From the NCBI GenBank assembly GCA_036785375.1, contig JAWMAR010000578.1, positions 992,001-1,056,000 on the forward strand: a stretch of DNA of 64,000 bases, written 5' to 3'. The DNA is from Leucoraja ocellata. Taxonomy: Eukaryota. Shown piece by piece: positions 11,156 to 47,909 of the stretch (its first letter is position 1; every line of letters starts with the position of its first letter). The notes beneath the pieces are model-generated. The model did not search any database, was not told the DNA's origin, and worked only from the letters and a program-made list of their open reading frames with translations. The position numbers and the translations under genes are program-made.

Positions 11156-11586
11156 ATATCCGGTTAAATGGCCCTTCGTTAAGGATCGAAGCCAAAACTG
11201 CAATTAACACGTTAAAGAACGGCTCAAGAAAGCAAATTAAATTCTCGACAAAGGTTCTTTTCATTTTTATTTTAATTACCGTACCGTATATTTTTAAGTA
11301 TTCCTGCCACCAGAACTAATAAAGGCTCATATTTTCATCCTAAACATCACCTTTCACTTTAGAATAAATTAGGATATGATCTGGCATGGAATTGTCAAAA
11401 GATGTTGAAGCAGATACAACAGGAATTTTCAAATTATTAGTGGATGTATACTTGACGTAACCTGAAAAATAAATAATGGTTTCATCCTGCCCTAGAGTAT
11501 TCCACGATACTATAGAATAAAACTGATTTATAATATTCTGCTACGAATAATCCCTATTTTGAAACAAGAGGAGACATTTCACCTAC

Positions 11587-11630
11587 CGGCTCCCCGTTCG
11601 GACGTATTCCTACAGAGGTTACGTTATGGC
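11587..11630 (-). CDS. Gene B first cytoplasmic exon (44 nt): (G)HNVTSVGIRPNGEP
   Basis: ttcattcctctag acceptor, CCG|gtaggt donor, phase 1 to 0; same length and phase as the gene D exon at 51491-51534. Confidence 0.7.
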
Positions 11631-12275
11631 CTAGAGGAATGAAATAAGAGTTACATAAAAACAACTTGAATTGTAAAGATTGATCTGTAGATTTTGACAT
11701 TATTCTTCTCATTTTAATCAAATTTACTGCAGAAAATAAGAACGATTGCATTTTTAAATATCAGATGGTGCTCAGCAGCACCAATTGCCACAATTATACC
11801 AATACAACGCATCTTGTACTCTTTCGCGATGTTGCGCCCACTGGACCTAAATTTTAACTGAAACTTTAAAATTGTAATGGTTTATGAGGAACCGTGTCCA
11901 TGTCGAAACAGCAATGTAATGTAAACATATGGAGATGTTTGGTTTTGCTCATTGCCACAGAAAGCCACAGTTGTTTTTTCCTCAAAATCGTAATCTTCCA
12001 TTGCATTAATTATCAATCACACTGGATTTGAAAAATTCCTTATATTTGAAAATATATGCATAGGTGATAATTGAATACATCCAATTCCAAGCTGAAATAA
12101 TTGAATTTGAAGATCCATCATATTATCACACACATATATCAAAACCGGCTTCAGAAATGTCTTTACATGTCCATCTACGTTTCCTTTTCTCCTCTGTGAG
12201 CAAACACCATTGACAAATCCATTCTCGTTTTAACCATAGAAATGATTATTGTATGATTATTATCAAGATTCTTAC

Positions 12276-12386
12276 CGTGCCATATCTTTAAGCTGAGTCT
12301 TATCACGATTATAATCAGAAATAAAATTACTGATCCACCTACTGCATATACGATCATCTGTTTGCGATCAATTCCTGATGAAGCAA
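12276..12386 (-). CDS. Gene B TM exon: (V)ASSGIDRKQMIVYAVGGSVILFLIIIVIRLSLKIWH(G)
   Basis: ttttcag acceptor and CACG|gtaaga donor; hydrophobic stretch. The upstream acceptor (exon start 12401) gives V-S-stop. Confidence 0.8.
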
Positions 12387-12906
12387 CTGAAAATTAAGAA
12401 ACTGTAAAGAATTTATACATTTCAGAACAAATATACAAACGGAAGTCAACAAGGCAAATCATTTCGTAGGTGCATTTTAATACCCACATCGGAAAGTTTG
12501 GAAGGTATATCATGAGGCACCAGATGGAAGATAGTAATGGAATCCACAGGACAAACAATTGCCGTTGTATTGTGCCCATGTGTGGAAAGCTGCTTACTGA
12601 CGTTAAACGGAATTTAGGCTTTATCTTCATATATTTAACCAGACAGTAGATATATGCATATCCCAGGACGTTTTTGATCATTACAATCATTATATCAATT
12701 CAGTTTGTCAATTCATCTCACACGGATTTCCTTACAAGAACTGATGGAGTGCAATTCATTTTAAACAGCATGCAAGTGTTGCTTTCATGCAAATACATGC
12801 GAGCCACATTTACCCTTCGCTCCGTGTACGGAAAGCTGTCCAGTTATTAATCTGATCGAATTTGATCTACCGCCCCAATATCATGTGTAACTGGCTCCAG
12901 TCTTAC

Positions 12907-13200
12907 CTTGGCCCAGGGTATAACTGAAACTGGCCGCCACCTTCAGAGAAACATGTGATACCAGACAGGTGTAAATATCTTTGCCCTCCACAGGCTGCGT
13001 TATTTCCAAAGAACTAGTAGCCACAAACAATCCTTCTTCGCTCGTTTTTTTCACAGTTTCGATTCCAGTGCGAATTTCCTCGTTATTTCTTAGCCAGATT
13101 ATTTCTAATTTCTCCGGATAAAAGGCGTCAGTTTTGCACACAAGTTTCCGTGGGGAGCCAAGTCCTTCAGCAGGAACAATTGTCAAGGGAGTTGGGGGAT
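12907..13200 (-). CDS. Gene B C1-set Ig domain exon
   Basis: LVCKTDAFYPEKLEIIWLRN..YTCLVSHVSL: C1 motifs CxxxxFYP, W and YxCxVxH; 294 nt phase 1-1. Confidence 0.9.
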
Positions 13201-15211
13201 CTTAAGCAAAGAAAAAAAAATATCTGTGTTCGCTTTCCATTTCATTGCAAATATTTACATTTTATCTCGCCACCGAGTCGTATTTGTCAATACCAAATTA
13301 TTTAATTTTTAAACTTCCCAGTTTGTCGTTCATTTATACTCCCTTTCCTAGCGGATAACCGGACGAACTCCGCCAAGATACAAAGAGGGTGAATTTAAGG
13401 AGTGCCAACATAATTTAAGGAGTTCCAAAATAAACTCTGTTCTGAATGGACGTTCCCCGGTATCGCGCGAAAGTTTTTGCCAGAAGCCTGCCGTGATTAT
13501 TTAAAAGTGGCCATGTTCGGATCATTCATATGTTGCAAAAGAAATGGAGCCATCATAATCGAAATATAACAGATTTGTATAGTGTGGTGACAGGAAGCGG
13601 TTATACATGAAGATTAATGATGAATCCCGTTAGCACTTTAAGTAGTATATGGATTAAATCTCCTCACCTTGGTCAAAAAGACCCACTTCAACATGTAATC
13701 ACTACTCTACTCTACTCACTCCGACCTGCGCGAGATAACCACATGAGGTGTTGGCGCAGTAATCAACCAGAACCAGAACCAGATATGGGTTTGAAATGCC
13801 GATCACAACCATTTACCTGCATGTGAACCAAGTGCTGGAACACCTACCTTTCTCGCGCATTGAATGCTTTTATTGAAACACCGTGGTATATATTACAAGC
13901 AATCTACGAGCGCACTTATTCTATGTCAGTATGTAGGAAAGAACTACAGAAGCTGGTATAAACCGAACAACAACATCTCTTCGGAGAACGAATGGGTGAC
14001 GTTTCGGATCGAGGTTTGAAGAAGGGTATCGACCCCAAACGTCACTCATTCCTTCTACCCAGAGATGCTGCCTGCCCCGCTGAGTTACTCCAGCATTTTG
14101 TGTCTCTATACAAATCAGTTCCATCTGTTGTGCCAACTTGGCGACAGTGAATCGACATCGTTAGATCGGCGTTAATGATGATAGCTGGCAGAAGCCAAAC
14201 GAGGGAAAAGAACAAGCTCTGTTTCTCGCTGTGCAGATTCTACTCATTTAGGTCTGCACGTAAAAGGCCCTATATTTGGCATTTATTAACGCGAACTCCT
14301 TCCGTACGAGCTGCAGCCGGTGTCTAACTGGACGGGGAGTTGATTGTTGGGTTGCTTTGTCCGTTTATTACAAATCTTTAGAAAGCTTGACTTAATTCAC
14401 TTAATCAGGATTATCTTTAACGATGAAATAAATGTTACTGTTTATTCCCGGACTTTAAATAATTTCAGTTGCGATGTTGTTTACTTCTTTTTTCCCCCGT
14501 ACGGTGCCAAATTGCTTGAATAGACTGAGGTTATGCCTGACAAAATTAGTGTCAAGCGATTTCAAAAAAAAGAAAAAATATTTCATTGAAGTAGCTTGGA
14601 ATCAGCAGCGATGAGTCCCACATGTTGGAATACCAAGGTCCTTGGGTTGCAGCAGCACATTGGTCTTATGAGGTTCTAAAGCTGTCGATGTAGAATTAGA
14701 GGCATGACAGACTCTACCATCGACGTATTAAAATTGCTCCTACTCTCTTTTCTTAGTGATGAGAAACCTGGATATCACACTCCAGCCACTCAAACTAACA
14801 GGAATATTATTTAAACATCTCATTGCAAAACATTTCTAACCTCAGAATGAACTCCTTCCATCTCAGCATTTACCCGCTCTTAGCGATACATCCATCTGGG
14901 AGATTGGCCTAAAATTCGGGACCGCTAAATGAATGGGCTGCGCCCATTCATAGCGGCAATGAAAAGGAGTCTCGCATAGTATCGTACAATGAACAGAATA
15001 ACCCTCAATACCCACGCGTCCCACAAGTGCTACTCGACCTGGTGATTATGTACATTGTGCTTTGTTTCATTTTGAATTACTGGTCCCTGTAATTTAAAAT
15101 TGTTATTACCGGATATTTATCAACAGGCGATTTTTCATATTATCCTCGCGACTAGACTTTACAAATGACATAGAACTGAAAATTGCTTATTTCCCTAACA
15201 CACACACTCAC

Positions 15212-15517
15212 CAAATACGGTGATCAGGCTGCCACTTCCATTCCCGATAATCTGATGCTTGAACTTCACTTGACAGTAATACAGGCCGGAGTCAGCGACA
15301 CGCACATGTTGGAGAGTAAATATTTCCCTTCCAGAATCTATCGTAAATTGTTTTCTACTGTCCGGTTCAAGGAATGTCTTCATGCCGTCCCTCCACCAAT
15401 TAACGCCAATAGTGTCTTTCGATATTGGAAATGTGCAATACATGATAGCATGTTCACCGCCGCCAACGTCCAAGATGGCAGGGAATTGGGACACTCTGGT
15501 CGAATAGACTTCGGTAG
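15212..15517 (-). CDS. Gene B VJ-type V-set Ig domain exon
   Basis: MYC..VNWWR..DSGLYYC..GNGSGSLITV (J-like GxG G strand); 306 nt phase 1-1 with cag/gtgag boundaries. Confidence 0.92.
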
Positions 15518-15710
15518 CTGTCGGGGAAAAAGCAAGAACAATTGAAACATTTGTAAACACTGGACAGAGAAAACAGGAACCAACTGTCGAAAAGCACGAA
15601 ACAACTATAAACCCACGAGGGCCTAATAGATGAACCTAATAGCTCGAAACCAGGTCCGAATTTTCGAAAAATAATACTTAGACCAGAAATGGCACACATT
15701 TTAACTATAC

Positions 15711-15765
15711 CCTGCGTTAGTATGACCAGAAGAGCCATGGACCAAACTCTAACTTTCACCGACAT
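15711..15765 (-). CDS. Gene B signal peptide exon (MSVKVRVWSMALLVILTQ/G)
   Basis: 55 nt, CAGG|gtatag donor, hydrophobic core. Confidence 0.85.
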
Positions 15766-16916
15766 ATTACAAGAATAAATTGCCAACTTGTTGTTAGTTT
15801 ACTCAAAACTTGCTCTGCGGAAAAGGAAATTATGAGTAAATATATGAAACGTGACCGTGACGTAATATATCCCACGACTGTGGCTCGTGCGGCGGGAGAG
15901 GTCATAGTTCGGCCCATTCCCATTGTAACAAAGCCTTCCAATACTTCCTGAAACGTGTTCACAACCTCCTCCCGTAGCATCGAGATTTTTACTCGGAATT
16001 AAATATGCATCAGCTGCCTACTCAGTTAATTGTCACAAATCGTTCCGCGTAGAAGGTAAGGAGTGCATGTGAATATTTAGATGCACAAACGTAAACACCC
16101 ACCTTCCCTTGAATCTCCCTCCCTTCCCAATGGGTGTTGTGCTCTTTCGCTCTTTCGATTATATACATTCAAACAACAATCACCCATTTCGTTTCTTCCT
16201 GTTCAGCCCTCACCATCGCCATCCGCAGCTTTCTATTGATTATGTTTCCATCTGACGTTTTTAACACTAACTCCGGTTGCTATTCCTACAAAACCAAATC
16301 TCCATGCTGGTTTTTGTTAACTAATATTTCTACTATTTACATAAACACAATTGCAGCAATATTCTATGGGGAGTCCAGCAGAAAATTGGCGCCAAGCCGC
16401 GACAGCTAACGTATGAATGAAATCTATGTTTTTTCTTCCGATAATGCCCAGTAGAGCAATCAACTTATGCTGTTGACATCCACACAACCCAGGAGAATAG
16501 GGGCTGTAAATTAATCGAATGGGCCAATATAAATTAGGGAGATTTAAACCAAACTGTTAATCTTATAATTTCCTCCAAAGTATTGTTTTAAAAATCGTAG
16601 AAATGAAGGATTACTTAAAGTTTGGACTACAGGCAAGAAGCCAACGTGGTGAGCGAGGCGGTTTGAACTATTTATGTTTTCCCCGTATCGTGGTTATACT
16701 CACATTCCTCTGCACAAACCAATGATTTTGGCTTCAGAACACACATTAAATTGCACGAGCAGAAACCTGTTGTAGACCAAATGGTTAAGTAATTTTCGTG
16801 TAATTTAAATGTTTGATGCGCCTCACTTAGAGACCTTGTGCCGTTCAATGGAAGGACATAATATTCCAAATATACACAGTAATTCTCTGGATATTTTTTA
16901 AATTACTGAAATCGGG

Positions 16917-17219
16917 CAGGACCGTATCGCAGTAGTAGAGTTGCTGCACTTACAGCGCCAGAGACCTGGGTTCGATCCCGACTGCGAGTGCTGTCTGTAT
17001 GGAGTTTGTACGTTCGTCCCGTGACTAGCTTGGGTTTTCTCTGGGCGCTCCGGTTTCCGCCCACATTCCAAAGACGTACATGTTCGTAGGTTGATTGGCT
17101 TCGGTAAAGATTGCAAATTGCCCCTGTCTTGCAGGATAGTGCTAATGTACGGGGTGATCGCTGGTCGGCGCGGACTCTGTGGGTCGAAGGGCCTGTTTCC
17201 GCGCTGTATCTCTAAACTA
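16917..17219 (+). mobile_element. tRNA-derived V-SINE (HE1-like)
   Basis: B-box-like GGTTCGATCCC, V-domain-like GGAGTTTGTACGTTC..CTCCGGTTTCC..CCACA, CR1-like 3' end; duplicate at ~31373-31674. Confidence 0.8.
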
Positions 17220-18197
17220 TTGCTAAAAATACTGTTTCTGAAAATGGCTTCTATTTGAACTTCCATGTGAGGATTGCGTAATATTCGGGTTTTAAGTCTG
17301 TCCACATTAACCGTTCAAACGAAGAGCTGCAACAAGAACATTCCGGTTTGTGATGCTGGTCTTGAAGATAATGAAGTCTGGACTCAGATTTAAAGCGGCA
17401 CGTTGTTTCTTGTTTAGTGAAGACAGCAGTGTAAAGAAACCAGCGGCAGTTCGAGAAAACCTCAGTACACGGCAAATCTGACAAATTAAGGATTTATGTG
17501 CATGTTTACAAGCTACTGTCAGCGATGAGCTGTTCTGCAATAATGGGCCAATAATAATCTTACAAAATGGATTTGAAGACATTTTATTGTCACATTTTGA
17601 GGTAATGCATCGGTATATTCCCATTGTTTAATAGAAAAAAATATTGTGATACCGCAAGCGACTACTGAAAAAGATCATGTTTGCATTATTAATTTAACTT
17701 CGATTAAATGTTTCCAAGACGGCTCCTATATTTTTAAAGTTTCATTAAATTAGATTCATTTAGTAAACAGCAGGCGCGGAAAGCTTTGGGCAACATAATT
17801 TTGTTTTCCATAACGTTAGACCCTTACATTGTTGATGACCTCATCGCAGATACGTTTTCCAAATATTATTAACAATGTCTGATGGGAATAATTGGTTAGA
17901 TTGCGTTTTTATTCTCCTTTCGACAAGATGTGTTGGATTGCCATTGACAAGAAAATACTGTTTTCTCCCGTTTGGTGGAATTGACTGGAATCCTGCAACA
18001 GGTCAGATTGCGAAATAGAACTAACGTCTCGAGTTGATCATTTCTGTGATAATATAGAAATATTTACTGTTTCTCTTTCTCCACAGATTGTCCTCGACGA
18101 CCTAGAATTCACAATATTTCGTGATTAATTTCAGATTTCAAAGTATCTGCAATCTAGCATTATCCAGTAATTATCTTGCCAGAACTTTTCCAAGTGA

Positions 18198-18497
18198 TCG
18201 CAGCGGTAGAGTTGCTGCCGAACAGCACTTGCAGCGCCAGGGACCCGGGTTCGATCCCGACTACGGGGACTGTCTGTACGGGGTTTGTACGTTCTCCCCG
18301 TGACCGCGTGGGTTTTCTTTCTCCGGTTTCTTCCCACACTCCAAAGTCGTGCAGGCATGTAGGTAAATGGCTTGGTAAATGTAAAACATGTCCCTAGCGT
18401 GGGTAGGATAGTGCTAATATGCGTTGATCGCTTATCGGCGCGGACTCGGTGGGCCGAAGTGCCAGTTTTCGTGCTGCATCTCTAAACTAAATTAAAC
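18198..18497 (+). mobile_element. tRNA-derived V-SINE (HE1-like)
   Basis: Same structure as the SINE at 16917; duplicate at ~32645-32945. Confidence 0.8.
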
Positions 18498-18900
18498 AAA
18501 ACTGGAATTTAGATGTAGACTGAAAATGTAAATGCATTAAACGCATATCCCCGACGGTCATCAATTGCGACATTATGCCAGTCAATCTGCATTCTCCTTA
18601 TCCATTCGAGCGCCCACTAAAGTCTATGGACTTTATAGTTATTGCCAGCAAGTTGCCTCTAATTACAGGCGATATCTTCTTTTTGTAAATACAATCATCA
18701 CAACTTGTCAAATGTTGTATGGAGTACGTACTAAGCGCACCCACATAGGTCAAGTGCACAGGGGTAGTCTTTCCAGTAATCCTCATGGATATATTTCAGC
18801 TCCTCTATGCCGGAGAGGCACCACACGTCTCTGCTCTTCTGAGCAAAAGTGACAACGCGTCAACCATATGAAATACCCGGGACTCCAAGCAGTCAAGAAT

Positions 18901-19167
18901 ATAACCATATAACCATATAACCATATAACAATTACAGCACGGAAACAGGCCATCTCGACCCTTCTAGTCCGTGCCGAACACATAATCCCCCCTAGTCCCA
19001 TATACCTGCGCCCAGACCATAACCCTCCATTCCCTTCCATCCATATAACTATCCAATTTATTTTTAAATGATAAAAACGAACCTGCCTCCACCACCTTCA
19101 CTGGAAGCTCATTCCACACAGCTACCACTCTCTGAGTAAAGACCACACAGCTACCACTCTCTGAGTA
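18901..19167 (-). mobile_element. CR1 (family 2) 3' fragment, specific to unit 1
   Basis: (taaccata)n tail; AAGAAT TSD at 18895-18900 and 19168-19173; empty site at ~33341 in unit 2. Confidence 0.9.
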
Positions 19168-19274
19168 AAGAATGATGAAACAGATAATATTTTTGAATCA
19201 TTTCGTTTCATCTTGACTTATAATGCGTCAGGTAATGGCACATCGTTCCATGCTCTCAGAGAAAGGGTAACATT

Positions 19275-19705
19275 GAACAAGATTGCTCTTTATTCTTTGG
19301 AGCGCAGAAGGTTAAGGGGGGACTTGATAGGTCTTTAAAATTATGAGAGGGATAGACAGAGTTGACGCGGATAAGCTTTTCCCGTTGAGAGTAGCGGAGA
19401 TTCAAACAAGAGGACATGATTTGAGAATTAAGGGACAAATGTTTAGGGGTAACATGAGGGGAAACCTCTTTACTCAGAGAGTGGTAGCTGTGTGGAATGA
19501 GCTTCCAGTGGAAGTGGTGGAGGCAGGTTCGATTTTATCATTTAAAAATAAATTGGATAGGTATACGGACGGCAAAGGAATGGAGGGTTATGGTCTGAGT
19601 GCAGATAGATGGGACTAGGTGAGAGTAAGTGTTCGGCACGGACTAGAAGGGCCGAGATGGCCTGTTTCCGTGCTGTAAATTGTTATATGGTTATATTATA
19701 TAGTT
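19275..19705 (+). mobile_element. CR1 (family 2) 3' fragment shared by both duplication units
   Basis: MRGIDRVD..TRGHDL..FTQRVVAVWNELP; copy at ~33450-33875. Confidence 0.9.
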
Positions 19706-20070
19706 ACATTTAAAAATCAGCCATTTAATTGCCATGAAGAAGTTTACCTCGTATTTATTTTTTCCCCAGAACGAACACGAAATAATTAAGGAAAGACCAA
19801 TAAAGGAAAGAGGGGTCTCAACCCGAAAGGTCACCCATTCCTTCTCTCCAGTGATGCTGCCTGTCCCGCTGTGTTACTCCAGCATTGTGTGCCTTCCTGC
19901 CAAATAATGAAGATTACAGTACAACCTTAGAAATGTATCATTGCCGGAGGCAGACTTTTAAGAAATGGTCTTAAATTAAACTTCTTGTTCTACACTTAAG
20001 TTTCCAAGGTGATAACGCGAGCTGTCGGTGACTTGTTTGTTTCAGATAGGCACAGCGTTCGACCGCAAGC

Positions 20071-20292
20071 CTTTCCATGACGTCGCCATCAGACTCGCGA
20101 GAACAGTTCTATTCTCATGCTGTGTGTTATTTCTATCTTGTCAAGCTAGAAATGCAGTGGTCAGTTAGTTAGTCAGTAGATGATTAGTTAGTCAGTAGAC
20201 GATGGAAAAAACTTAGTTCCGTTCCATCTTTTTTATAGAAACGTTGCAGAAGCTCGCATGGACCCATTCGTGTTTGCGAATTACAAGCAGAA
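20071..20292. promoter_or_regulatory. Paralog-conserved non-coding element upstream of gene B (copy at 34240-34445 upstream of C)
   Basis: ctttccatgacgtcgccatcagactcgcgag..catcttttttatag..gcgaattac aligns with 63840-64000 and 4136-4226. Confidence 0.5.
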
Positions 20293-20623
20293 GTCTAAAA
20301 TTAAATCTGATTGGAAGGGCATAACGCTTCGTCCCAATGGAACAAATAAGAGGCATCTAAAAAGCGCATAACAAGGACGGCGTATACGCATATACATAAT
20401 TTAATTTAAATATGCAGATTTATAATTCGCAGTTGAAGTAGTGAGAATCGAACGTTATTTGCCGCTATTTGCTTTCATCTCCGAAAGCAAATAGATCATA
20501 AAACATACAACAGTTAAACACTGCAACGGGTCTCTCGGACTAGTATGTCTACGCGGAACATGATGCGAAGATAAACTAATCTCCTCTATTTGCATATGAT
20601 GCACATCCCACCATGCCTTATTT

Positions 20624-20651
20624 CTGAAGAAGGGTCTCGACGCGAAACGTC
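20624..20651 (+). ncRNA. Minimal hammerhead-ribozyme-like core in a Penelope-derived repeat (copy at 34761-34788)
   Basis: CTGAAGA-a-GGGTC-tc-GACgC-GAAAC-GTC. Confidence 0.5.
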
Positions 20652-21142
20652 ACCCATTCCATTTCTCCAGAGATGCCGCCTGTCCCGCTGAGTTCTCAAG
20701 CTTTGTGTGTCTATCTTAGATTTAAAGCAGCATCTGCAGTTCCTTTGTACATATTTATATGCCTATCGAAAAGACCCTTCAAAAACTGCTGTCTTATCTT
20801 CTCCCAGCACCCGTGGTAACGCGTTCCAGGCCCTTTCCGCGTCAAAAACTGGCCGATAACACTCAAACTCTGACGTTAAAGCAATACCTTCCTATCTTTC
20901 ATAGGTTCTGACGAACAACACTATCCGTGCCTCTCGTTATTTCCAATTCTTCAGCCAGGTGGCCAGTCTCAGAAGAAATCACGCGGAGCGTTTTATTGTC
21001 ATATGTCACAGATAGAACTACGGCATTCTTATTTCCAGTAGCACAACAGAATATGTAAACATAGTACACTGTGAGCAAAACTATAAACAGGAAAAAAAAG
21101 TCCAGTGTGTATATATAACATACATTTACACACACACATATA

Positions 21143-22265
21143 TCTATATTACTAAAAGTCTGATCTTGACCACTTCCTGTTGTTCTGTATATTGATTTTT
21201 AGAAAAAAAACGCTGCCACTGATGGCTGTGATTTTTGGCCATCTTACTTAGAGTCCCCTTCCGCTGCGCAGGACAAGAGGATTTTTCCCATCGATTAAAA
21301 ATAAAGGAGTTATTAGTGTTTTAAAAATGTTGAGATTCTCTCTCCTGAAGCGACTATGAAACCCGGAAGTGTTGAGTGCCTCAGTCAGTCTCTGCAAGAT
21401 GGGGGAGCGAGAGGGTAATGTCTCTCAATCTGAACTGTAAATAAAACTGAAAACATGTCTACTAAACTGTGAGTGGTTTTACTGACCTGGCAGTGCCCTT
21501 AATGTGGTTTGAAAATATAGTTTGGAAATGCTAAATCTGTGCTGCCTTTGGGTTGGAAATGCTAAAGCTGTGTTGCCTAATTAAAGTTGCCTTGCCTAAT
21601 TAAAGTTGCATAATTAAAGTTGCCTTGTCTAATTAAAGCTGCCTTGCCTAATTAAAGTTGCCTTGCCCAATTAAAGTTGCCTTGCCTTCTATATAATAAA
21701 TGTCTAATCTTGACCACTTCCCGTTTACGCTTTGTATTGATTTTAGCAACAATGCTACCACGTACGGCTGTGATTTTTGGATATCTTACTCAGAGTACCC
21801 CTCCACTAATCAGGTGCCGAGGATTTTTCCCATTAATGAAAAATAAAAGTTATTATTAGTGTTTAAAAAAATGTTGATATTCTCTCGCCTGTTAATCACG
21901 CCATGAAGGCGACGCCCCTTCTGGTGGGAGGGGGTGGGAGGGACTATAAAACCCAGAAGTGTGGGCGTGGCTCAGTCTCTGCAAGATGGAGGAGGGAGAG
22001 GTCACGACTGCTGTCTTTAGTGGCCTTGCACCCTGCTTGAAATGGTATGGAACTGCACTTGAATTTGGTGGCCTTGCACCCTGCTTGAAATGGAATTTCA
22101 AGGAATAGCAGTGAGTCAACTGCCAGTCCACCAGCCGTGAGTGAGTGAGCTGCCAGCAAAACAGGCATGTGTGACCGAGCCGCCAGCCCAAGAATCCATT
22201 CGGTCCACTATGTCCATACTAGCCCTCTGGAAACCAGTCCCTTCAGACCACAACACCATACTAGC
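21143..22265 (+). mobile_element. Helitron-like non-autonomous element with duplicated 5' module (copy ~35283-36424)
   Basis: Starts a|TCTATATT.., module repeated at ~21687, ends near ..ATACTAG; contains a 19-bp minisatellite. Confidence 0.45.
21579..21687. repeat. 19-bp minisatellite aattaaagttgccttgcct x6
   Basis: Direct reading; the unit-2 copy at 35716-35843 has 7 units. Confidence 0.9.
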
Positions 22266-22309
22266 GCTCCAGAAAGCCCCCCACCCCATTGTCCACCAAT
22301 ATTGGTATT

Positions 22310-22500
22310 TGTTGAGTGGTGGGTTACTTGAAGTTGGAGGTCAATATTCATACCGCTGTGGGGTAAGCTTCCCAAGCGACATATTCGGTGCTCTTCCTCC
22401 AATTTGCACTGAGCCCCACGCTGATGGGGGTGTTAAAGTGTTTAGTAATGGGAGATCTGGTAGGTTTATGTGGAGGTTTATGCTTCGCTACTAAACTGTG
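22310..22500 (-). mobile_element. Penelope-like element remnant (GIY-YIG C-terminus); copy ~36480-36660
   Basis: PITKHFN.. and LEEEHRICRLGSL..SGMNID resemble PLE endonuclease-end motifs (HFN; E..LIFRLG.L.P.GLN). Confidence 0.6.
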
Positions 22501-24628
22501 GGAAATCGATTTCCTGTGGTCATTAGGAATAGTACTTAGCGAAGAGAATTTGCAGATAATTGTCCTGGTCAATCTTGTGGATAGTTGATTTTGAAATAAA
22601 TTATCCAGATTTGCAGGTGCGGCCCGCTGCTTGAGTCGGTGGCACAAGTTCATGGAAATTCAGGTGTCAGGGGTTATGGGGAGATGACAGGAGAGTGGAG
22701 TTAGGAGGGAGAGATAGATCACCCATGATTGAATGGCGGAGTAGACTTGATGGGACGATGGCCTAATTCTATTCCTATCACTTATGACCTTCTGACAAGT
22801 TAAACTCATTCACAAGAGTTAATGTTATTAAACTATTCACAAGAGCAGTAGATTATAATTTCAGATAAGGGGAAATCGCGCTAGTGAGAAGCGAGAAGGG
22901 ATAGGCAAACACGAATAAATTGCTACATCATCCCAAGAGCAAGATTATACATATGGCCTGTGGCACACTCTGGCATTCACATTATTTCACTAAGTCATAG
23001 GTGCATCAGTGGAAAGAATCATAAACCGTTTGCAATTTGTGCACAGTCTTGATATTAGTAAGTTGCATCACCATCCAGTGTGGACGATTTAATTCACACC
23101 TTTAGTTGAATACAGCACAATGGATTTAATGTAAACAGAAATCTGCCTATGTAACTGACCAAGTGACATACATTTCTGAAGGTCAGTCTGAAGACGGGAT
23201 CTAAACCGAATGGTCGTCTCTCCATTTGCCTCAACAGATTTTGCCTGCCTGCTGATTTCTTGCAGTTCAAGATTCCAGCGCCTTCAGTCTCTTGTGACAC
23301 CATATATTTTTTCGTAATGAATTATCAGGATCTATTGAAAATCATAATTCATCCATGACGAATCGGTCGTATTTGATTAAATGACATTAGTTTTCCATCT
23401 ATTTATCTGATTGATTTCATAATGAGACGTACAGGATGAATACAGTGACAAGTGGGCGCACTGTTTCAGCATCCAGAACACAGTCCGCAGGGAGCTGCAT
23501 GGACGGTTACTACACATTAAGATATTTGAGACTGCCATTGCTGGGATCTTGAGGAAAACAGCAAAGCGGTGGAGGAACTCAGCAGGCGAGGCAGCATCTG
23601 TGGAGGGAATGGGCAGACGACGTGTCAGATTAGAACCCTTCTTCAGAATAGTGTGGATTAAACTGGAAGATACCTGGGGTGGGACGAAACCGATCCAGTG
23701 ATAGGTGGATGCAGATGATGGGTGAAATTGTCATGTCGAGAAGGCGGCGGTTGTATATGTAAAAAGGGAAGGGTGTGTGTGTATGCGCGCGTCTGTGTGT
23801 GTGTGTGTGTGTGTGTGTCGCCGGGTGGGGTTGGGGGGGGGGGGGGGGGGGGTGGATCTCAGAACACGAGCGCTCAGTCCGCCAAGGTCTGCTGGTGCTT
23901 CCAGTCACTACATGCTGATGCACGTACTGATTTGCTTTGCTTTTTACGTGGAACATATGAAGTTACCAACACTAATGTCTGGGCAAATGGAACCATCCGT
24001 GCAGAACTTACATCTTCTGTTCCACTGTAGGTGGCTATGCCACTGACGTCACTGAGGCGCTTTGCTCCGCCGGGCTATCATCACATGACTGACTAATTCC
24101 ATTTCATTACAAGTGTATTCAATGGTAGTGCCCTTGATTGGTTGATGGGTTTCTTCGGATTTCCTTCTCTGGTTTGTGTTGACGTTAGTGTATTTCGAAA
24201 CAAATGAGAGGACAAAGGCTCAGGTGCATTGAAAAAGCATGGAATTTAATGAAGGGAAAATATATTGGTTGCACAACTGAATAATCGGCGGGTTTTTTTT
24301 AAATCAGACATCATTAAGTGACATGTTATCACGAACGGACGTGGCCATAGTTTCTTCACAAAGCACCAGCGACATTATTCACATTTGAGAACAGAAATAA
24401 AATAAACAAATACGATTTTTAAAATATACAACAAATGCAAATTGGCACTTTCATCCCTGCTTTCAGAAAGTGTTGGATGCTTGTTAGATGATGGTCATTT
24501 ACACCAAAACATTGACTCAATGCAGGTGAAAACGACCTGCAGCTCCCACGATTGTTACCATGGGAGTTCATTAGCTTGGCTGTAATGATCAGAAAGTAGC
24601 AATATTTCCGCCTGCAATTATTCACAGT

Positions 24629-24778
24629 CTACAGCTTCGATTTCCAGCTTCGCTCCTTCTTTAAAACATTTCCATCTGCATAAGGTACATGTTCCTCTTT
24701 CTGGTTAAATGTTACTGCTGATTGGAGTTGAGTAACTGCAAATCGACATGATATAACGTAGAATCTATCATCTTTAGT
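24629..24778 (-). CDS. E-derived terminal cytoplasmic exon, now downstream of gene C: TKDDRFYVISCRFAVTQLQSAVTFNQKEEHVPYADGNVLKKERSWKSKL*
   Basis: ttactttcacag|ACTAAAG acceptor, as in the B and D terminal exons; EHVPYAD matches D's EHPVYAD; ITIMs degenerate. Confidence 0.55.
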   Translation of the reverse strand, partial: TKDDRFYVISCRFAVTQLQSAVTFNQKEEHVPYADGNVLKKERSWKSKL

Positions 24779-26002
24779 CTGTGAAAGTAATTTATATCGG
24801 CCATTAGTCAATTACCCTCTGGTGGCACAAATAATACGATTTTGAAACAAAATACTACCAGTCTCATAGAGAATGTATATACACTTCAGGATTCATACTA
24901 ATCCATGAGACTGCACCAACGTGCAAACAAATATGGAATTGCTATCCGTCATCTTTAATGATACACGGGCACGGGATTAAAAGTGCTTTACTGCAAGTTG
25001 GGGAACTGCTTCTAATGAGTTGAGAAAACAGTAGTTTATTCTAAAACTGTATTGCGCGCTACTGCTGGGATGGATTATTCTGTGTTTTAGTTTTGTTTGG
25101 TTGAGTTAGCGATCTTCCAGTGATCTGCCAGTAGCAAATTGTTATCAGATTTTTTTTTGCCATTCTTCATTAATTTTCTTTCCCTGATTTCACTTAGTGT
25201 TGATCTTCGGCGCTACTAATCATTCCTGGCCCACAGAACAACATTAGCTTTCTTCGTTATTGCTGATCATTTGTATGGACGTAAATGGAATCTGCTTTAG
25301 GGGGCAGACGAATAGTAAACTTAAAGTAGCAAACATTTAATATTACGTATTAAAAATGCTGATAATGCAAAGTACAATTTTAAGATTCGCTGATAGACAG
25401 TTTAACCTATATTCCCATGGGGTAAATTCTACGTTGAACCTGCCTGCACAATTGTCAGGAAATCAACGGTCGCTAGGAAATAAGAGTTGTTCATATTGTC
25501 CTTGGGCTGAAATCATCCAACATTGTGTACTCTTCTTATCGAGACCACACACAAGATTAGAAGTTGTTCAACCAGAGCGGAACACAAGTCTCGGCATCTG
25601 CATACAATGGTGTCTGTTCTTGTGCTTCTAGTGCGTAGTGGTGGAAAGATTGGTGAAAGCAGGGCCGGGCGTGAACGCTCTTTCCTTGACCCCATTCCAA
25701 ACTTGGTAGATTGAAAGTGTTATCACTGCACTCTGCTTAATATCCCTCGGCTTCGGCACCACTACCGAATTTCGGTGAATTCAATAACCGATGGAGACAC
25801 CAAAAATAAACGACGATTGAAACATTGACATGGGAAGATGTAAGATTTATATCTTAAGTTTTATTTTTGTCATTATTAATGGTCAGCTTTATTCTCAATT
25901 ATTTTATTGTTTTGCAATCGAATAGCATTTACTGCCCTTGGTTTTTTTTAACCACCATTATGATTAATACCGAAAATAGTGTAAAATATGTATAATTCTC
26001 AC

Positions 26003-26101
26003 CATTTTGTGCCTTTAATTGGAGTCTTATCAAGATAATGACCAAAACTAAAACTGCCAACACACCCACTGCGCATCCGATAATTAGGTTTTTATCTGCA
26101 T
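26003..26101 (-). CDS. E-derived second TM exon downstream of gene C's own TM: (D)ADKNLIIGCAVGVLAVLVLVIILIRLQLKAQN(G)
   Basis: ccataag acceptor after a pyrimidine tract, AATG|gtgaga donor, 99 nt phase 1-1; homologous to the D TM exon (LILGCVLGVLAIL..LRIKATN). Confidence 0.7.
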
Positions 26102-26280
26102 CTTATGGATCAAGAGAGAAACAGGAAAAACGTGAATGATATAATATATAGGAAATATATACACATTTAGGAATTTAGCGATAACACAGAACACCTCAAT
26201 GGTTTATTAGCCTTTGAGCTTCTTGCTCCATGATTGATTTGTGATTTTGAAACATTGATCTCTCATTACGAATAAACACG

Positions 26281-26313
26281 GGCCTACTCCTGCACCTATT
26301 TTCCATGTTTCTA
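26281..26313 (+). mobile_element. CR1 family-1 3' tail filler at the duplication junction
   Basis: ggcctactcctgcacctattttccatgtttcta matches the CR1 end ggcctactcctgcacctaatttctatgtttcta. Confidence 0.8.
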
Positions 26314-26740
26314 TGTACTCTTTCGTGATGTTGCGCCCACTGGACCTAAATTTTAACTGAAACTTTAAAATTGTGATGGTTTATAAGGAATCGTGTCCAT
26401 GTCAAAACAGCAATGTAATGTAAAAATAAGGAGATGATTGGTTTTGTTCATTGCCACAGAAAACCACAGTTGTTTTTTCTTCAAAATCGTAATATTCCAT
26501 TGCACTCATTATCCATCACACTGGATGTTTGAATAATTCCTTATATTTGAAAATATATGCAAAGGTGATAATTGAATAATCCAATTCCAAGCTGATATAA
26601 TTGAATTTGAAGATCCATCATATATTATCACAGACATATATCAAAACCGGCTTCAGAAATCTCTTTGAGCAAACACCATTGACATATCCATGCTGTTTTT
26701 AACCATAGAAATGATTATTGTAAATTACCAAGATTCTTAC

Positions 26741-26851
26741 CGGGCCACATCTTTAAACTGAGTCTTATCACGATTATAATCAGAATTAAAAGTACTGATC
26801 CACCTACTGCATATACGATAATCTGTTTGCGATCAATTCCTGATGAAGCAA
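26741..26851 (-). CDS. Gene C own TM exon: (V)ASSGIDRKQIIVYAVGGSVLLILIIIVIRLSLKMWP(G)
   Basis: Duplicate of 12276-12386; the upstream acceptor (exon start 26866) gives V-S-stop. Confidence 0.8.
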
Positions 26852-27371
26852 CTGAAAATTAAGAAACTGTAAAGAATTTATACATTTCAGAACAAATATA
26901 CAAACGGCAGTCAAGAAGGTAAATCATTTCGTAGGTGCATTTTAATACCCACATCGGAAAGTTTGGAAGGTATATCATGCGGCACCAGGTGGAAGTTAGT
27001 AATGGAATCCACAGGACAAACAAATGCAATTGTATTGTGCCCATGTGCGGAGAGCTGCTTACTAACGTTAAACGGAATTTAGGTTTTATCTTCATATATT
27101 TCACCAGACAGCGGAATACCGCATATCCCAGGACGTTTTTGCTCATTACAAACACTATATCAATTCAGTTTGTCAATTCATCTCACACGGATTTCCTTAC
27201 AAGAACTGATGGAGTGCAATTCATTTTATGCAGCATACATGTGTTGCTTTCATGCGAACAAATGCGAGCCACATTTACCTTTCGCTCCGTGTACGGAAAG
27301 CTGTCCAGTTATTAATCTGATCGAATTTGATCTACCGCCCCAATATCACGTATAACTGGCTCCAATCTTAC

Positions 27372-27665
27372 CTTGGCCCAGGGTATAACTGAAACTGGCC
27401 GCCACCTTCAGGGAGACATGCGATACCAGACAGGTGTAAATATCTTTGCCCTCCCCAGGCTGCGTTATTTCCAAAGAACTAGTAGCCACAAACAATCCTT
27501 CTTCGCTCGGTTTTTTCACAGTTTCGATTCCAGTGCGAATTTCCTCGTTATTTCTTAGCCAAAATATTTCTAATTTCTCCGGATAAAAGGCGCCAGTTTT
27601 GCACACAAGTTTCCGTGGAGAGCCAAGTCCTTCAGCAGGAACAATTGTCAAGGGAGTTGGGGGAT
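27372..27665 (-). CDS. Gene C C1-set Ig domain exon
   Basis: LVCKTGAFYP..W..YTCLVSH; open 294-nt exon with intact splice sites. Confidence 0.9.
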
Positions 27666-29686
27666 CTTAAGCAAAGAAAAAAAAATGTATCGGTGTTCGC
27701 TTTCCATTTCATTGCAAATATTTACATTTTATCTCGCCACCGAGTCGTACTTGTCAAGACCAAATTATTTAATATTTAAACTTCCCAGTTTGTCGTTCAT
27801 TTATACTCCCTTTCCTAGCGGACACACGGACGAACTCCACCAAGATACAAAGAGGGTGAATTAAAGGAGTGCCAACAGAATTTAAGGAGTTCCAAAATAA
27901 ACTCTGTTCTGAATGGACGTTCCCCGGTATCGCGCGAAAGTTTTTGCTAGAAGCCTGCCGTGATTATTTAAAAGTGGCCATGTTCGGATCATTCATATGT
28001 TGCAAAAGAAATGGAGCCATCATAATCGAAATATAACAGATTTGTATAGTGTGGTGACAGGAAGCGGTTATACATGAAGATTAATGATTAATCCCGTTAG
28101 CACTTTAAGTAGTATATGAACTAAATCTCCTCGCCCTGGTCAAAAACACCCACTTCAACACCTAATCACTATACTCTACTCTACTCACTCCGACCTGCGC
28201 GAGATAACCACATGAGGTGTTTGCGCAGTAATCAACCAGAACCAGAACCAGATATGGGTTTGAAATGCCGATCACAACCATTTACCTGCATGTGAACCAA
28301 GTGCTGGAACACCTACCTTTCTCGCGCATTGAATGCTTATAGTGAAACACCGTGGTATATATTACAAGCAATCTACGAGCGCACTTATTCTGTGTCAGTA
28401 TGTAGGAAAGAACTACAGAAGCTGGTTTAAACCGAACAACAACATCTCTTCGGAGAAGGAATGGGTGACGTTTCAGATCGAGGTTTGAAGAAGGGTATCG
28501 ACCCCAAACGTCACTCATTCCTTCTACCCAGAGATGCTGCCTGCCCCGCTGAGTTACTCCAGCATTTTGTGTCTCTATACAAATCAGTTCCATCTGTTGT
28601 GCCAACTTGGCGACAGTGAATCGACAACGTTAGATCGGCGTTAATGATGGTAGCTTGCAGAAGCCAAACGATGGAAAATAACAAGCTCTGTTTCTCGCTG
28701 TGCTGATTCTACTCATTTACGTCTGCACGTAAAAGGTCCTATATTTGGCATTTATTAACGCGAACTCCTTCCGTACGAGCTGCAGCCGGTGTCTAACTGG
28801 ACGGGGAGTTAATTGTTGGGTTGCTTTGTCGGTTTATTACAAATCTTTAGAAAGCTTGACTTAATTCACTTAATCAGGATAATCTTTAATGATGAAATAA
28901 ATGTTACTGATTATTCCCGGACTTTAAATAATTTCATTTGAGATGTTGTTTACTTCTTTTTTTCCCCCGTACGGTGCCACATTGGTTGAATAGACTGAGG
29001 TTATGCCTGACAAAATTAGTATCAAGCGATTTCAAAAAAAAGAAAAAAGATTTCATTGAAGTCAGCTTGGAATCAGCAGCGATGAGTCCCACATGTTGGA
29101 AGACCAAGGTCCTTGGGTTGCAGCAGCACATTGGTCTTATGAGGTTCCAAAGCTGTCGATGTAGAATAGAGGCATGACAGACTCTACCATCGACGTATTA
29201 AAATTGCTCCTACTCTATTTTCTTAGTGATGAGAAACCTGGACATCACACTCCAGCCACTCAAACTAACAGGAATATCATTTAAATATCTCATCGCAAAA
29301 CATTTCTAACCACACCTCAGAATGAATTCCTTCCATCTCAGCATTTACCCGTTCTTAGCGATAAATCCATCTGGGAGATTGGCTTAAAATTCGGGACCGC
29401 TAAATGAATGGGCTGCGCCCATTCATAGCGGCAATGAAAAGGAGTCTCGCAAAGTATCGTACAATGAACAGAATAACCCTCAATGCCCACGCGTCCCACA
29501 AGTGCTACTCGACCTGCTGGTTATGTCCATTGTGCTTTGTTTTATTTTGAATTACTGGTCCCTGTAATTTAAAATTGTTATTACTGGATATTTATCAACA
29601 GGCGATTTTTCATATTATCCTCGCGACTAGACTTTACAAATGACATAGAACTGAAAATTGTTTATTTCCCTAACACACACACTCAC

Positions 29687-29992
29687 CAAATACGGTGATT
29701 CGGCTGCCACTTCCATTTCTGATAACCTGCTGCTGGAACTTTACTTGACAGTAATACAGGCCGGAGTCAGCTACACGCACATGTTGGAGAGTAAATGTTC
29801 CGCTTCCAGAATCTATGGTAAATTGTTTTCTATTGTCCGGTTCAAGGAATGTCTTCATGCCGCCCCTCCACCAATTAACGCTAATATTGCCTTTCGATAT
29901 TGGAAATGTGCAATACATGATAGCATGTTCACCGCCGCCAACGTCCAAGTTGACAGGGAATTGGGACACTCGGGTCGGATAGACTTCGGTAG
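29687..29992 (-). CDS. Gene C VJ-type V-set Ig domain exon
   Basis: MYC..WWR..DSGLYYC..RNGSGSRITV; 306 nt with intact splice sites. Confidence 0.92.
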
Positions 29993-30185
29993 CTGTCGGG
30001 ACACAAGCAAGAACAATTGAAACAGTTGTAAACACTGGACAGAGAAAACAGGAACCAACTGTCGAAAAGCACGAAACAACTATAAACCCGCGAGGGCCTA
30101 ATAGATGAACCTAATAGCTCGAAACCAGGTCCGAATTTTCGTAAAATAATACTTAGACCAGAAATGGCACACATTTTAACTATAC

Positions 30186-30240
30186 CCTGCGTTAGTATGA
30201 CCAGAAGAGCCATGGACCAAACTCTAACTTTCACCGACAT
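30186..30240 (-). CDS. Gene C signal peptide exon (MSVKVRVWSMALLVILTQ/G)
   Basis: Same peptide as the gene B leader. Confidence 0.85.
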
Positions 30241-38086: not shown

Positions 38087-38236
38087 CTACAGCTTCGATT
38101 CCCAGCTTCGCTCCTTCTTTAAAACATTTCCATCTGCATAAGGTACATGTTCCTCTTTCTGGTTAAATGTTACTGCTGATTGGAGTTGAGTAACTGCAAA
38201 TCGACATGATATAACGTAGAATCTATCATCTTTAGT
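38087..38236 (-). pseudogene. Pseudogene E terminal cytoplasmic exon
   Basis: Copy of 24629-24778 lying downstream of the E TM and C1 exons. Confidence 0.55.
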
Positions 38237-38985
38237 CTGTGAAAGTAATTTATATCGGCCATTAGTCAATTACCCTCTGGTGGCACAAAGAATACGATTT
38301 TGAAACAAAATACTACAGTCTCAAAGAGAATGTATATACATTTCAGGATTCATACTAATCCATGAGACTGCACCAACATGCAAACAAATATGGAATTGTT
38401 ATCCGTCACATTTAATGATACACGGGCACGGGATTAAAAGTGCTTCACTGCAAGTTGGGGAACTGCTTCTAATGAGTTGAGAAAACAGTAGTTTATTCTA
38501 AAACTGTATTGCGCGCTACTGCTGGGGTGGATTATTCTGTGTTTTAGTGTTGTTTCGTTGAGTTAGCGATCTTCCAGTGATCTGCCAGTAGCAGATTTTT
38601 TTTTGCCATTCTTCATTAATTTTCTTTCCCTGATTTCACTTAGTGTTGATCTTCGGTGCTACTAATCATTCCAGGCCCATAGAACAACATTAGCTTTCTT
38701 CGTTATTGCCGATCATTTGTATGAACGTAAATGGAATCTGCTTAAGGGGGCAGACGAATAGTTGATTTAAAGTAGCAAACATTTAATATTACGTATTAAA
38801 AATGCTGATAATGAAAAGTACAATTTTAAGATTCGCTGATAGACCGTTTAATCTATATTCTCATGGGGTAAATTCTACGATGAACCTGCCTGCACAATTG
38901 TCAGGAAATCAACGGTCGCTAGGAAATAGAGTTGTTCATATTGTCCTTGGGCTGAAATCATCCAACATTGCGTACTCTACTTATC

Positions 38986-39615
38986 ATAGAAACATAGAAA
39001 CATAGAAATTAGGTGCAGGGGTAGGCCATTCGGCCCTTCGAGCCTGCACCGCCATTCAATATGATCATGGCTGATCATCCAACTCAGTATCCCGTACCTG
39101 CCTTCTCTCCATACCCCCTGATCCCCTTAGCCACAAGGGCCACATCTAACTCCCTCTTAAATATAGCCAATGAACTGGCCTCAACTACCCTCTGTGGCAG
39201 AGAGTTCCAGAGATTCACCATTCTCTGCGTGAAAAAAGTTCTTCTCATCTCGGTTTTAAAGGATTTCCCCTTTATCCTTAAGCTGTGACCCCTTGTCCTG
39301 GACTTCCCTAAGATCGGGAACAATCTTCCTGCATCTAGCCTGTCCAACCCCTTAAGAATTTTGTAAGTTTCTATAAGATCCCCTCTCAATCTTCTAAATT
39401 CTAGAGAGTATAAACCAAGTCTATCCAGTCTTTCTTCATAAGACAGTCCTGACATCCCAGGAATCAGTCTGGTGAACCGTCTCTGCACTCCCTCTATGGC
39501 AATAATGTCCTTCCTCAGATTTGGAGACCAAAACTGTACACAATACTCCAGGTGTGGTCTCACCAAGAACCTGTACAACTGCAGTAGAACCTCTCTGCTC
39601 CTATACTCAAATCCT
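38986..39615 (-). mobile_element. CR1 (family 1) 3' fragment, specific to unit 2
   Basis: (catagaaa)n tail; TTATC TSD (38981-38985, 39622-39626); empty site at ~25536. Confidence 0.92.
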
Positions 39616-40090
39616 GAAAAATTATCGAGACCACACACAAGATTAGAAGTTGTTCAACCAGAGCTGAACACACGTCTCGGCATCTGCATACAATGGTGTC
39701 TGTTCTTGTGCTTCTAGTGCGTGGTGGTGGAAAGATTGGTGGAAACAGGGCCGCGACGTGAACGCTCCTTCCTTGACCCCATTGCATACTTAGTAGATTG
39801 AAAGTGTTATCACTGCACTCTGCTTAATATCCGTCGGCTTCGGCACCACTACCGAATTTCGGTGAATTCAGTAACCGATGGAGACAACAAAAATAAACGA
39901 CGATTGAAACATTGACATGGGAAGATGTAAGATTTATATCTTGAGATTTATTTTTTGTCATTGTTAATGGTCAGTTTTATTCTCAATTGTTTTATTGTTT
40001 TGCAATCGAATAGCATTTACTGCCCTTGTTTTTTTTTAACCACCATTATGATTAAGACCGAGAATACCGTAAGATGTGTATAATTCTCAC

Positions 40091-40189
40091 AATTTTGTGC
40101 CTTTAATTGGAGCCTTATCAAGATAATGACCAAAACTAAAACTGCCAAGACACCCACTGCGCATCCGATAATTAGGATTTTATCTGCAT
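40091..40189 (-). pseudogene. Pseudogene E TM exon: (D)ADKILIIGCAVGVLAVLVLVIILIRLQLKAQN
   Basis: 99-nt hydrophobic exon about 0.8 kb downstream of the E C1 pseudo-exon. Confidence 0.7.
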
Positions 40190-40305
40190 CTTATGGATCA
40201 AGAGAGAAACAGGGGAAATGTGAACGACATAATATATAGAAATATATACACATTTAGGAATTTAGCGATAACATTTGTGATTTTGAAACATTGATCTCTC
40301 ATTAC

Positions 40306-40875
40306 CATATAACCATATAACCATATAACAATTACAGCACGGAAACAGGCCATCTCGGCCCTACAAGTCCATGCCGAACAATTTTTTTCCCCTTAGTCCC
40401 ACCTGCCTGCACTCATACCATAACCCTCCATTCCCTTCTCATCCATATGCCTATCCAATTTATTTTTAAATGATACCAATGAACCTGCCTCCACCACTTC
40501 CACTGGGAGCTCATTCCACACCGCCACCACTCGCTGCGTAAAGAAGTTCCCCCTCATATTACCCCTAAACTTCTGTCCCTTAATTCTGAAGTCATGTCCT
40601 CTTGTTTGAATCTTCCCTATTCTCAAAGGGAAAAGCTTGTCCACAACAACTCTGTCTATCCCTCTCATCATTTTAAAGACCTCTATCAAGTCCCCCCTTA
40701 ACCTTCTGCGCTCCAGAGAATAAAGACCTAACTTATTCAACCTATCTCTGTAACTTAGTTGTTGAAACCCAAGCAACATTCTAGTAAATCTCCTCTGTAT
40801 TCTCTCTATTTTGTTGACATCCTTCCTATAATTGGGCGACCAAAATTGTACACCATACTCCAGATTTGGTCTCAC
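40306..40875 (-). mobile_element. CR1 (family 2) 3' fragment, specific to unit 2
   Basis: CATTAC TSD (40300-40305, 40876-40881); (taaccata)n tail; empty site at ~26264. Confidence 0.92.
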
Positions 40876-40997
40876 CATTACGAATAAACACGGGTCGTAT
40901 CTAGCCATTGTCTCCGTGTTTGAGCAGCTGTATATTTAAATTCTAACCAGGTTGGACATATACACCCGCTCTTGTCTGCAAGTAATTACAATCTTAC

Positions 40998-41521
40998 CTT
41001 TTTTGACGGTGTAGCTGAGAGCTGCTGGCACCTCAAGGGAAACATGATATACCAAGCAGGTGTAAACTCTCTGCCACAGAGGGTAGTTGAGGCCAGTTCA
41101 TTGGCTATATTTAAGAGGGAGTTAGATGTGGCCCTAGTGGCCAAGGGGATCAGAGGGTATGGAGAGAAGGCAGGTACGGGATACTGAGTTTGATGATCAG
41201 CCATGATCATATTAAATGGCGGTGCAGGCTGGAAGGGCCGAATGGCCTACTCCTGCACCTAATTTCTATGTTTCTATGTTTCTATGTTTAAACGGCGTCG
41301 CCTCAAGCAAGTTTAATTCCTTCCAAAAAACTGGAAACCTCATACAATCCTTCTGCGCTTCTATTTTTTTACCGTTTCTATTCCGGTCAGAATTTCTTCG
41401 TTATTTCTCCGCCAGGAGATTTCTATTTTTTCCGGATAAAAGCTCGCCGTTTTACACACAAGTTTCCGAGACTGCGATGAAGTTCCTTTAACCGGGATGA
41501 TTTTCAACGGAGTTGGGGTAG
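40998..41521 (-). pseudogene. Pseudogene E C1 exon (frameshift, stop, CR1 insertion)
   Basis: TPTPLKII..LVCKTASFYPEKIEISW.. frameshift ..GLYEVSSFLEGIKLA*GDAV[CR1]YTCLVYHVPLEVPAALSYTVKK|gtaag. Confidence 0.85.
41068..41288 (+). mobile_element. CR1 (family 1) 3' fragment inserted in the E C1 exon
   Basis: TAAAC TSD (41063-41067, 41289-41293); removing it restores DAVYTC. Confidence 0.9.
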
Positions 41522-47830: not shown

Positions 47831-47909
47831 AGTCCTGAATTGGATTCCCCCCCCCCCCCCCCCCCCCCCGCCAATCTAACTTAAATCCACCCATGTAATA
47901 TTAGCAAAA

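Follow-up and report, generated by a model that had tools for sequence, protein, structure and literature searches.

The window analysed here is a stretch of 64 kb from the skate Leucoraja ocellata (assembly GCA_036785375.1, contig JAWMAR010000578.1, positions 992,001 to 1,056,000 of the forward strand), and it holds a minus-strand cluster of receptor genes built from V-set and C1-set immunoglobulin (Ig) exons. One of these, gene C, is a composite. Its leader, V, C1 and first transmembrane (TM) exons come from gene B, a short 3' tail of a long interspersed nuclear element (LINE) follows, and a second TM exon and the terminal exon come from the relic gene E. Positions below are those of the window unless a contig is named, and the genic features are on the minus strand.

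Gene C opens with a leader exon (30186-30240, 55 nt, ATG at 30240) of the same sequence as the leader of B. The next exon, of the unsplit VJ type (Pfam V-set, 36.1 bits), was placed at 29687-29992 once its true acceptor had been located, which corrects the original prediction made from this sequence. The V query used in the Pfam, word-indexed, ESM Atlas and PDB searches and in the stop count included eight intron-encoded residues, while the statistics were calculated on the true exon. The C1-set exon (27372-27665; Pfam C1-set, 46.7 bits) is 96.9% identical to that of B, and the B-derived TM exon, TM1 (26741-26851), has a hydrophobic core without a charged residue. Beyond TM1 lie 427 bp of B-derived intron (26314-26740), in which read-through meets a stop after eight codons, and then the junction filler (26281-26316, plus strand), which is the 3' tail of the LINE family of the window. 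A 52-bp stretch (26185-26236) with an AATAAA at 26208 precedes the second TM exon, TM2 (26003-26101). This is a 99-nt open exon of phase 1-1 with AG and GT sites, 97% identical to the TM exon of E, and its acceptor is of the AAG type that the C1 exon also uses. The terminal exon, T (24629-24778), is 99% identical to that of E and reads VPYADG in frame 0. The positions of TM2 and T, the splice sites and phase of the former and the motif of the latter are thus as first described. An ATTAAA at 24245-24250 is a candidate polyadenylation (poly(A)) signal, and the 3 kb upstream of gene C are 96.8% identical to the region upstream of B.

The donor of the 5' part, gene B (7888-15765), is an intact V-C1-TM receptor of the inhibitory type, of 351 aa. 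Its tail motifs, AYATL, LTYATV and TVYADV, are spread over three exons: a linker of phase 1-to-0 (11587-11630, 44 nt), a middle exon (8867-8977, 111 nt) and a terminal exon (7888-8022). Gene C has none of these downstream, and so the proposed loss of the exons with immunoreceptor tyrosine-based inhibitory motifs (ITIMs) held. The donor of the 3' part, relic E (38087-41520), has a TM exon (40091-40189) and a terminal exon (38087-38236); its C1 exon (40998-41520) is broken by a stop and a LINE insert, and no leader or V exon was found for it. LINE insertions at 38985-39622 and 40306-40877 are present in E and missing from the copy in C, which means that they were inserted after the duplication that formed C. 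The second of them has a short target-site duplication, and C retains the empty site. The insert at 38985-39615 is 98.9% identical to 48142-48772, which suggests recent activity. The LINE family of the filler has a microsatellite tail and is presumably of the CR1 type. Reverse-transcriptase-like LINE open reading frames lie at 48241-49983, 60358-61725 and 10033-11163 (580, 455 and 376 aa).

Self-comparison of the window revealed a direct tandem duplication of 14.5 kb. Copy 1 (11815-26280) holds the 5' part of B and the borrowed 3' part of C, and copy 2 (26314 to about 40890) the 5' part of C and the 3' part of E; the two are 92.8-95.6% identical and each has private insertions. The breakpoint, which had been estimated at about 430 bp past the TM exon of C, was measured at 427 bp from the TM1 donor. 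Between the parental sequences stand 31-36 nt matching the LINE 3' tail, with a microhomology of 3 nt to the intron of B at the tail end and of 2 nt to the intron of E at the truncated end. This filler is missing at the parental sites, both in the five ITIM-bearing B-type genes (5/5) and in the two E copies that are informative (2/2, intron retained). A LINE 3' end between direct copies, empty parental sites and microhomology are the features of LINE-bridged duplication, and from the first two we infer that the duplication was of this kind; capture of the filler during break repair fits the geometry too. A single duplication joined the post-TM intron of B to the pre-TM intron of E through the short LINE tail, and the junction was afterwards copied to four places. 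A crossover between pre-existing LINEs was rejected because the parental sites are empty. An origin of the filler in the LINE inside the C1 exon of E is disfavoured, that LINE having another sequence variant in 4/4 copies.

The stretch from TM1 across the junction to TM2 has four copies in the genome, two on contig C578 and two on contig C1270, at 98% identity. Among the ten E cassettes, the four with the junction group as a single clade (FastTree support 1.000), as do the four junction genes among the 13 B-type TM regions (100/100), and a 29-mer from the 52-bp stretch has four exact genome matches, which are the four junction copies. One clade and a private 52-bp stretch are accounted for by a single origin followed by further duplication, and not by an assembly error. 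It could be argued that the junction results from uncollapsed haplotypes, as the array is repetitive, both haplotype-like versions of it sit in one assembly and no raw read across the junction was seen. C578 indeed aligns inversely with C26 and C1270 at up to 99% (C578:898k-1107k against C26:12.13-12.155M plus C1270:1-280k), and the two versions differ in gene content, with five and eight B-type genes, respectively, as KIR haplotypes do. However, the duplicated units differ by 4-7% and carry private LINE insertions, the junction copies have themselves diverged within their clade, and the filler is found in neither parent. We therefore give this explanation hardly any credence and regard an assembly artefact at the junction of C as very unlikely.

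As for what gene C can encode, it had been suggested that the borrowed VPYADG tail is read as a peptide through a degenerate linker exon near 25765-25800, with the two TM exons used in a mutually exclusive manner. The tail proved unreadable. In a pattern search, all 27 terminal-type acceptors open with the same five bases, and entry from a phase-1 donor gives Asp and then a stop; since C lacks both its linker and its ITIM exons, every splice route to its last exon has this outcome. The candidate at 25765-25800 shows no significant likeness to the linker of B or to that of gene F, another member of the cluster, the best local matches lying elsewhere. Neither has the interval between TM2 and T a significant match to the B linker, the B middle exon or the F linker (shuffles scored as high in 92, 53 and 7 of 200), and a donor/acceptor scan of it returned no open phase-1-to-0 exon, its single candidate carrying a stop. 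With no linker found, the so-called tail is predicted to be 3' untranslated region and not coding sequence. As for exclusion, no mechanism was found: the TM exons have the same phase, are jointly in frame and are separated by a 639-nt intron, and the check for inverted repeats returned 20 short imperfect ones, a count made without a shuffle control. What speaks for translation of the tail is that T has 49 open codons in frame 0 in 8/10 copies and that it is somewhat less variable than intron (7/150 polymorphic columns against 119/1224, P=0.050). Set against the lack of linker homology and of an open exon, and with no steric or frame basis found for exclusion, this leaves the suggestion highly improbable.

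The ATTAAA stands 374-383 nt beyond the frame-0 stop of T in 4/4 copies, a spacing similar to that in gene F (355) and in a second module described below (363); given this usual distance for the family, T can serve as a last exon. The AATAAA at 26208, restricted to the four junction copies, is a candidate intronic poly(A) site and hence a candidate earlier transcript end. The predicted products are TM1-T (256 aa), TM2-T (252 aa), TM1-TM2-T (289 aa), a soluble C1-T form (219 aa) and TM1 read-through (263 aa). All end within nine residues of the last ectodomain or TM exon and none has a tyrosine motif. The cores of TM1 and TM2 are both uncharged, so that gene C has neither the charged TM residue nor the immunoreceptor tyrosine-based activation motif of an activating receptor. 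As the main isoform we would name, as a matter of judgement, TM1 alone or TM1 with TM2, equally plausible choices of which neither is probable by itself; TM2 alone and the soluble form both seem improbable, and to the same degree. The raw RNA runs X6, X10 and X13 (5-25% of each used, 88% likeness threshold, organism code different from that of the DNA) yielded depth only over repeats and practically none over exons, at a threshold that would have captured B as well, and are therefore uninformative on C.

The design of gene C is not peculiar to its junction. A second, independent rearrangement, with its break about 89 bp past the TM donor and inside a LINE, combines a B-type TM exon with another TM exon (TMb) and a tyrosine-free terminal exon. 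It was found in four genes (C578:947186-948403; C1270:27881-29099, 190634-191849 and 232335-233550), and with it 8/13 B-type genes have two TM exons and a dead tail; two TM exons also occur in three A-type genes. Gene A itself (V exon at window 1-200; C578:985930-990675) is one with two TM exons. Its TMb has Arg near the start in 4/7 copies and Cys in three, and the terminal exon behind it has lost both tyrosine motifs by deletion. Gene A could give an activating-type isoform, yet Arg occupies the same place in a devil-ray model that bears an ITIM.

Two intact-looking V-C1 genes with an Arg in the TM exon (L065 6692-6799 and L066 5902-6009, at C26:11.96-11.98 Mb) resemble short-tailed catshark members and are candidate activating receptors. 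That they end in a homologous Asp-stop terminal exon was rejected, as their candidate acceptor reads on and lacks significant likeness (112-242 of 300 shuffles scored as high). A genome search with a catshark Arg-TM peptide gave one chance match only. The description of gene C as a paired receptor in the making can hardly be maintained when its design is already present in 8/13 B-type genes and Arg-TM members exist in the genome; with the latter present, pairing is not new to the family, to which C adds a neutral member. Gene C represents a recurrent module, not a one-off, and on our best reading it is a non-signalling partner in a paired-receptor cluster resembling those of KIR or CEACAM.

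The V domain of C differs from that of B in 16/101 residues (nonsynonymous, pN, 16/233 sites; synonymous, pS, 6/70 sites). The divergence stated in the original prediction is in that sense real, but it belongs to a lineage shared with ITIM genes and is not a change specific to C. The V domain of C is only 1/101 residues from that of an intact 357-aa ITIM gene at C26:12153398, in which no gap separates V exon and tail, and the 5' 3.3 kb of C show 12 mismatches to that gene; single-nucleotide polymorphisms of the V exon, which had been offered as a means of assigning transcripts to C, would fail to separate the two. From the C1-TM intron to the breakpoint, C differs from the ITIM genes by 4.7-6.8%. 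In the other junction gene on C578, the V domain is 2/101 residues away from that of B. Near-identical ligand-binding domains are thus found on inhibitory and non-inhibitory genes of one cluster. By their 3' module the 13 B-type genes fall into five with the ITIM tail, four with the C junction and four with the TMb module. On the TM-region tree these labels require two changes (0/200 shuffles as low), whereas on the V tree they require seven (180/200 shuffles as low) and do not cluster. This pattern shows that V exons have moved between ITIM genes and tailless ones, the 3' modules remaining distinct.

Taking these results together, gene C is a real hybrid of B ectodomain and TM exons with the TM and last exon of E, and we lean towards it encoding a non-signalling partner, of decoy or adhesion type, of the ITIM receptors; the proposal of exon shuffling to a chimeric, ITIM-less, non-signalling product is supported by the sequence, with the artefact alternative strongly disfavoured. 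All four junction genes have an open leader-V-C1-TM1-TM2 frame together with its splice sites. Gene C would be transcribed, to judge from the 96.8% identity of its upstream 3 kb to those of B. Relic E would supply a splice acceptor and a poly(A) signal, not a peptide, and the product would share a ligand with its ITIM twin and recruit neither phosphatases nor adaptors. Several points weigh against this. In tandem arrays of one orientation, unequal crossover reshuffles V exons with no need for selection, and intact frames say little, since exchange with functional paralogs would restore them in any case. The cluster includes real pseudogenes (E, and an A-type V with a stop). The near-identity of C to the C26 ITIM gene, which adjoins a scaffold gap, may partly be an assembly switch. 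Moreover, V pN/pS over the 13 B-type genes is below 1 (0.043/0.058), so that no positive selection is shown.

A rival explanation is a neutral one, in which C is a by-product of birth and death in the array, silent or transcribed without a meaningful protein. It agrees with the variability of TM2, which equals that of intron (9/99 polymorphic columns against 119/1224, P=1.0), with the premature frame-0 stop in 2/10 terminal-exon copies, and with the many broken or truncated genes of a cluster whose gene number differs between haplotype-like contigs. It does not account easily for the absence of stops from the four junction genes (0/4) and from the V and C1 exons of the 13 B-type genes (0/13), or for two independent events having given the same tailless design and both having been amplified. 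We consider it rather unlikely, while taking it seriously. Less likely still is that the TM exons themselves are selected, either because both are used in a two-pass, hairpin-anchored Ig receptor or because their use is regulated. TM2 keeps its frame and its two splice sites in all four junction genes, the AAG acceptor is shared with the C1 exon, two TM exons recur in the B-type and A-type genes counted above, and over ten copies of TM2 mean pN is 0.022 against a pS of 0.060, a weak hint of pN<pS. Yet these values come from a handful of changes and take in copies of relic E, from which no receptor can be expressed, TM2 varies as intron does, and two TM segments were present in 0/65 of the relatives' protein models that could be scanned. 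TM2 is probably a passenger exon. An equally doubtful extension would make the locus a KIR-like combinatorial one, where one ITIM module and two independently built double-TM tailless modules trade V exons, and the double-TM genes yield two-pass hairpin-anchored Ig decoys; for such a topology no immune-receptor precedent was found in the literature and protein models examined. Were the two-pass isoform what C actually makes, a decoy would have been built in an unusual manner.

Other members of the family were also noted. Gene F (43565-57319) appears to have a linker and a terminal exon and no match to the middle ITIM exon of B, and its tail would carry two motifs, PTYAAL and PVYADI. Four F-like genes (C578:930115-933684 and 1067943-1071174; C1270:42788-46354 and 244075-247644) have open leader, V and C1 exons and no TM or tail match downstream; they are possibly secreted V-C1 proteins or truncated copies. 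About 23 V-exon paralogs, more distant at 33-45% identity, lie in additional clusters of the family at C26:7.82-8.50 Mb, C26:11.96-12.08 Mb and C105:6.08 Mb.

Of the relatives that have a name, the closest are RefSeq models annotated automatically as 'PTPNS1-like' or 'NCR3LG1-like' in rays, sharks and a chimaera. The skate genes share with this chondrichthyan V-C1-TM family a V-set and one C1-set domain, their V domains are 41-59% identical to those of its shark and ray members, and a little-skate model matches the TM exon of a paralog almost letter for letter. Among the relatives' models (65 of 67 scannable) many end in ITIM-like tails, and several combine an Arg close to the start of the TM with a short tail. 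When longer proteins were sought by a word-indexed search with the V exon as query, 0/94 candidates remained, and ESM Atlas, PDB sequence and fold searches gave generic Ig V/I-set matches only (fold search Z 12.7-14.7, no SIRP among the best 50 matches listed). The family profile, searched against PDB, had SIRP-alpha (2.2e-20) and SIRP-gamma among its top matches, and UrIg at 9.1e-24. As in non-rearranging VJ-C1 genes such as PRARP and UrIg, the unsplit V exon holds the G strand (GxG motif) and the C1 exon comes next. Such genes are described in elasmobranchs, this V-C1 family not being named in the available part of that source (PMC10751288). No dedicated paper on the family was found in the literature searched, and PRARP/UrIg papers outside it may describe it.

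With SIRP the skate family has in common, as far as the consulted part of PMC3716694 goes, a V plus C1-set ectodomain, clustered paired receptors and a member without signalling, SIRP-gamma, to which C is comparable in design as a neutral member. SIRP has three Ig domains (PMC3716694), whereas in gene C only the V and one C1 exon stand between leader and TM; UrIg and Ig chains score equally well or better. The junction recalls L1 bridging, in which, according to the part of PMC7058536 consulted, a small fragment from the LINE 3' end, 34 bp long in one deletion case, spans distant breakpoints with 1-5 bp of microhomology, and one L1 insertion can cause a direct tandem duplication. The cases in that part of the source are somatic human events with poly(A) tails; C would be a germ-line example of a gene made by a likely LINE-bridged duplication, with a microsatellite-tailed LINE.

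The closest parallel to the composition of C is the KIR2DL3/2DP1 hybrid, where recombination in a tandem cluster joins a functional ectodomain to pseudogene 3' exons, with repeats at the breakpoint and haplotypes that vary in gene content, as set out in the portion of PMC2816608 available. In that hybrid the crossover is in register, one TM and the ITIM are retained and transcription is shown (PMC2816608), while the offset breakpoints of gene C left it with two TM exons, its tail cannot be read and both parental sites are without the repeat. The CEACAMs offer the parallel to its fate. Duplicated inhibitory receptors lose their ITIMs by exon skipping, TM read-through or TM skipping, and the ligand-binding exons stay alike through recombination or gene conversion (PMC5856374, PMC5112662, both in part). 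Horse CEACAM1 paralogs do so by TM read-through, exon skipping or secretion (PMC5856374), and paired CEACAMs are reported to trade ectodomains across inhibitory and non-inhibitory genes (PMC5112662). The CEACAMs belong to another Ig family, and no tandem second TM exon is described in the consulted parts of these two papers; the part of PMC2110893 consulted did not bear out two TM exons in a dog CEACAM gene, which was therefore not used. The Xenopus partners are also activating and oppositely oriented (PMC5112662), whereas gene C is predicted to be non-signalling and stands in tandem. Each ingredient is already known from mammalian and amphibian clusters, and gene C provides a clear case from a cartilaginous fish; the V-C1 family varies in gene content, exchanges ectodomains and has repeatedly lost the ITIM tail, which suggests that the dynamics of paired receptors operate in the oldest jawed lineage.

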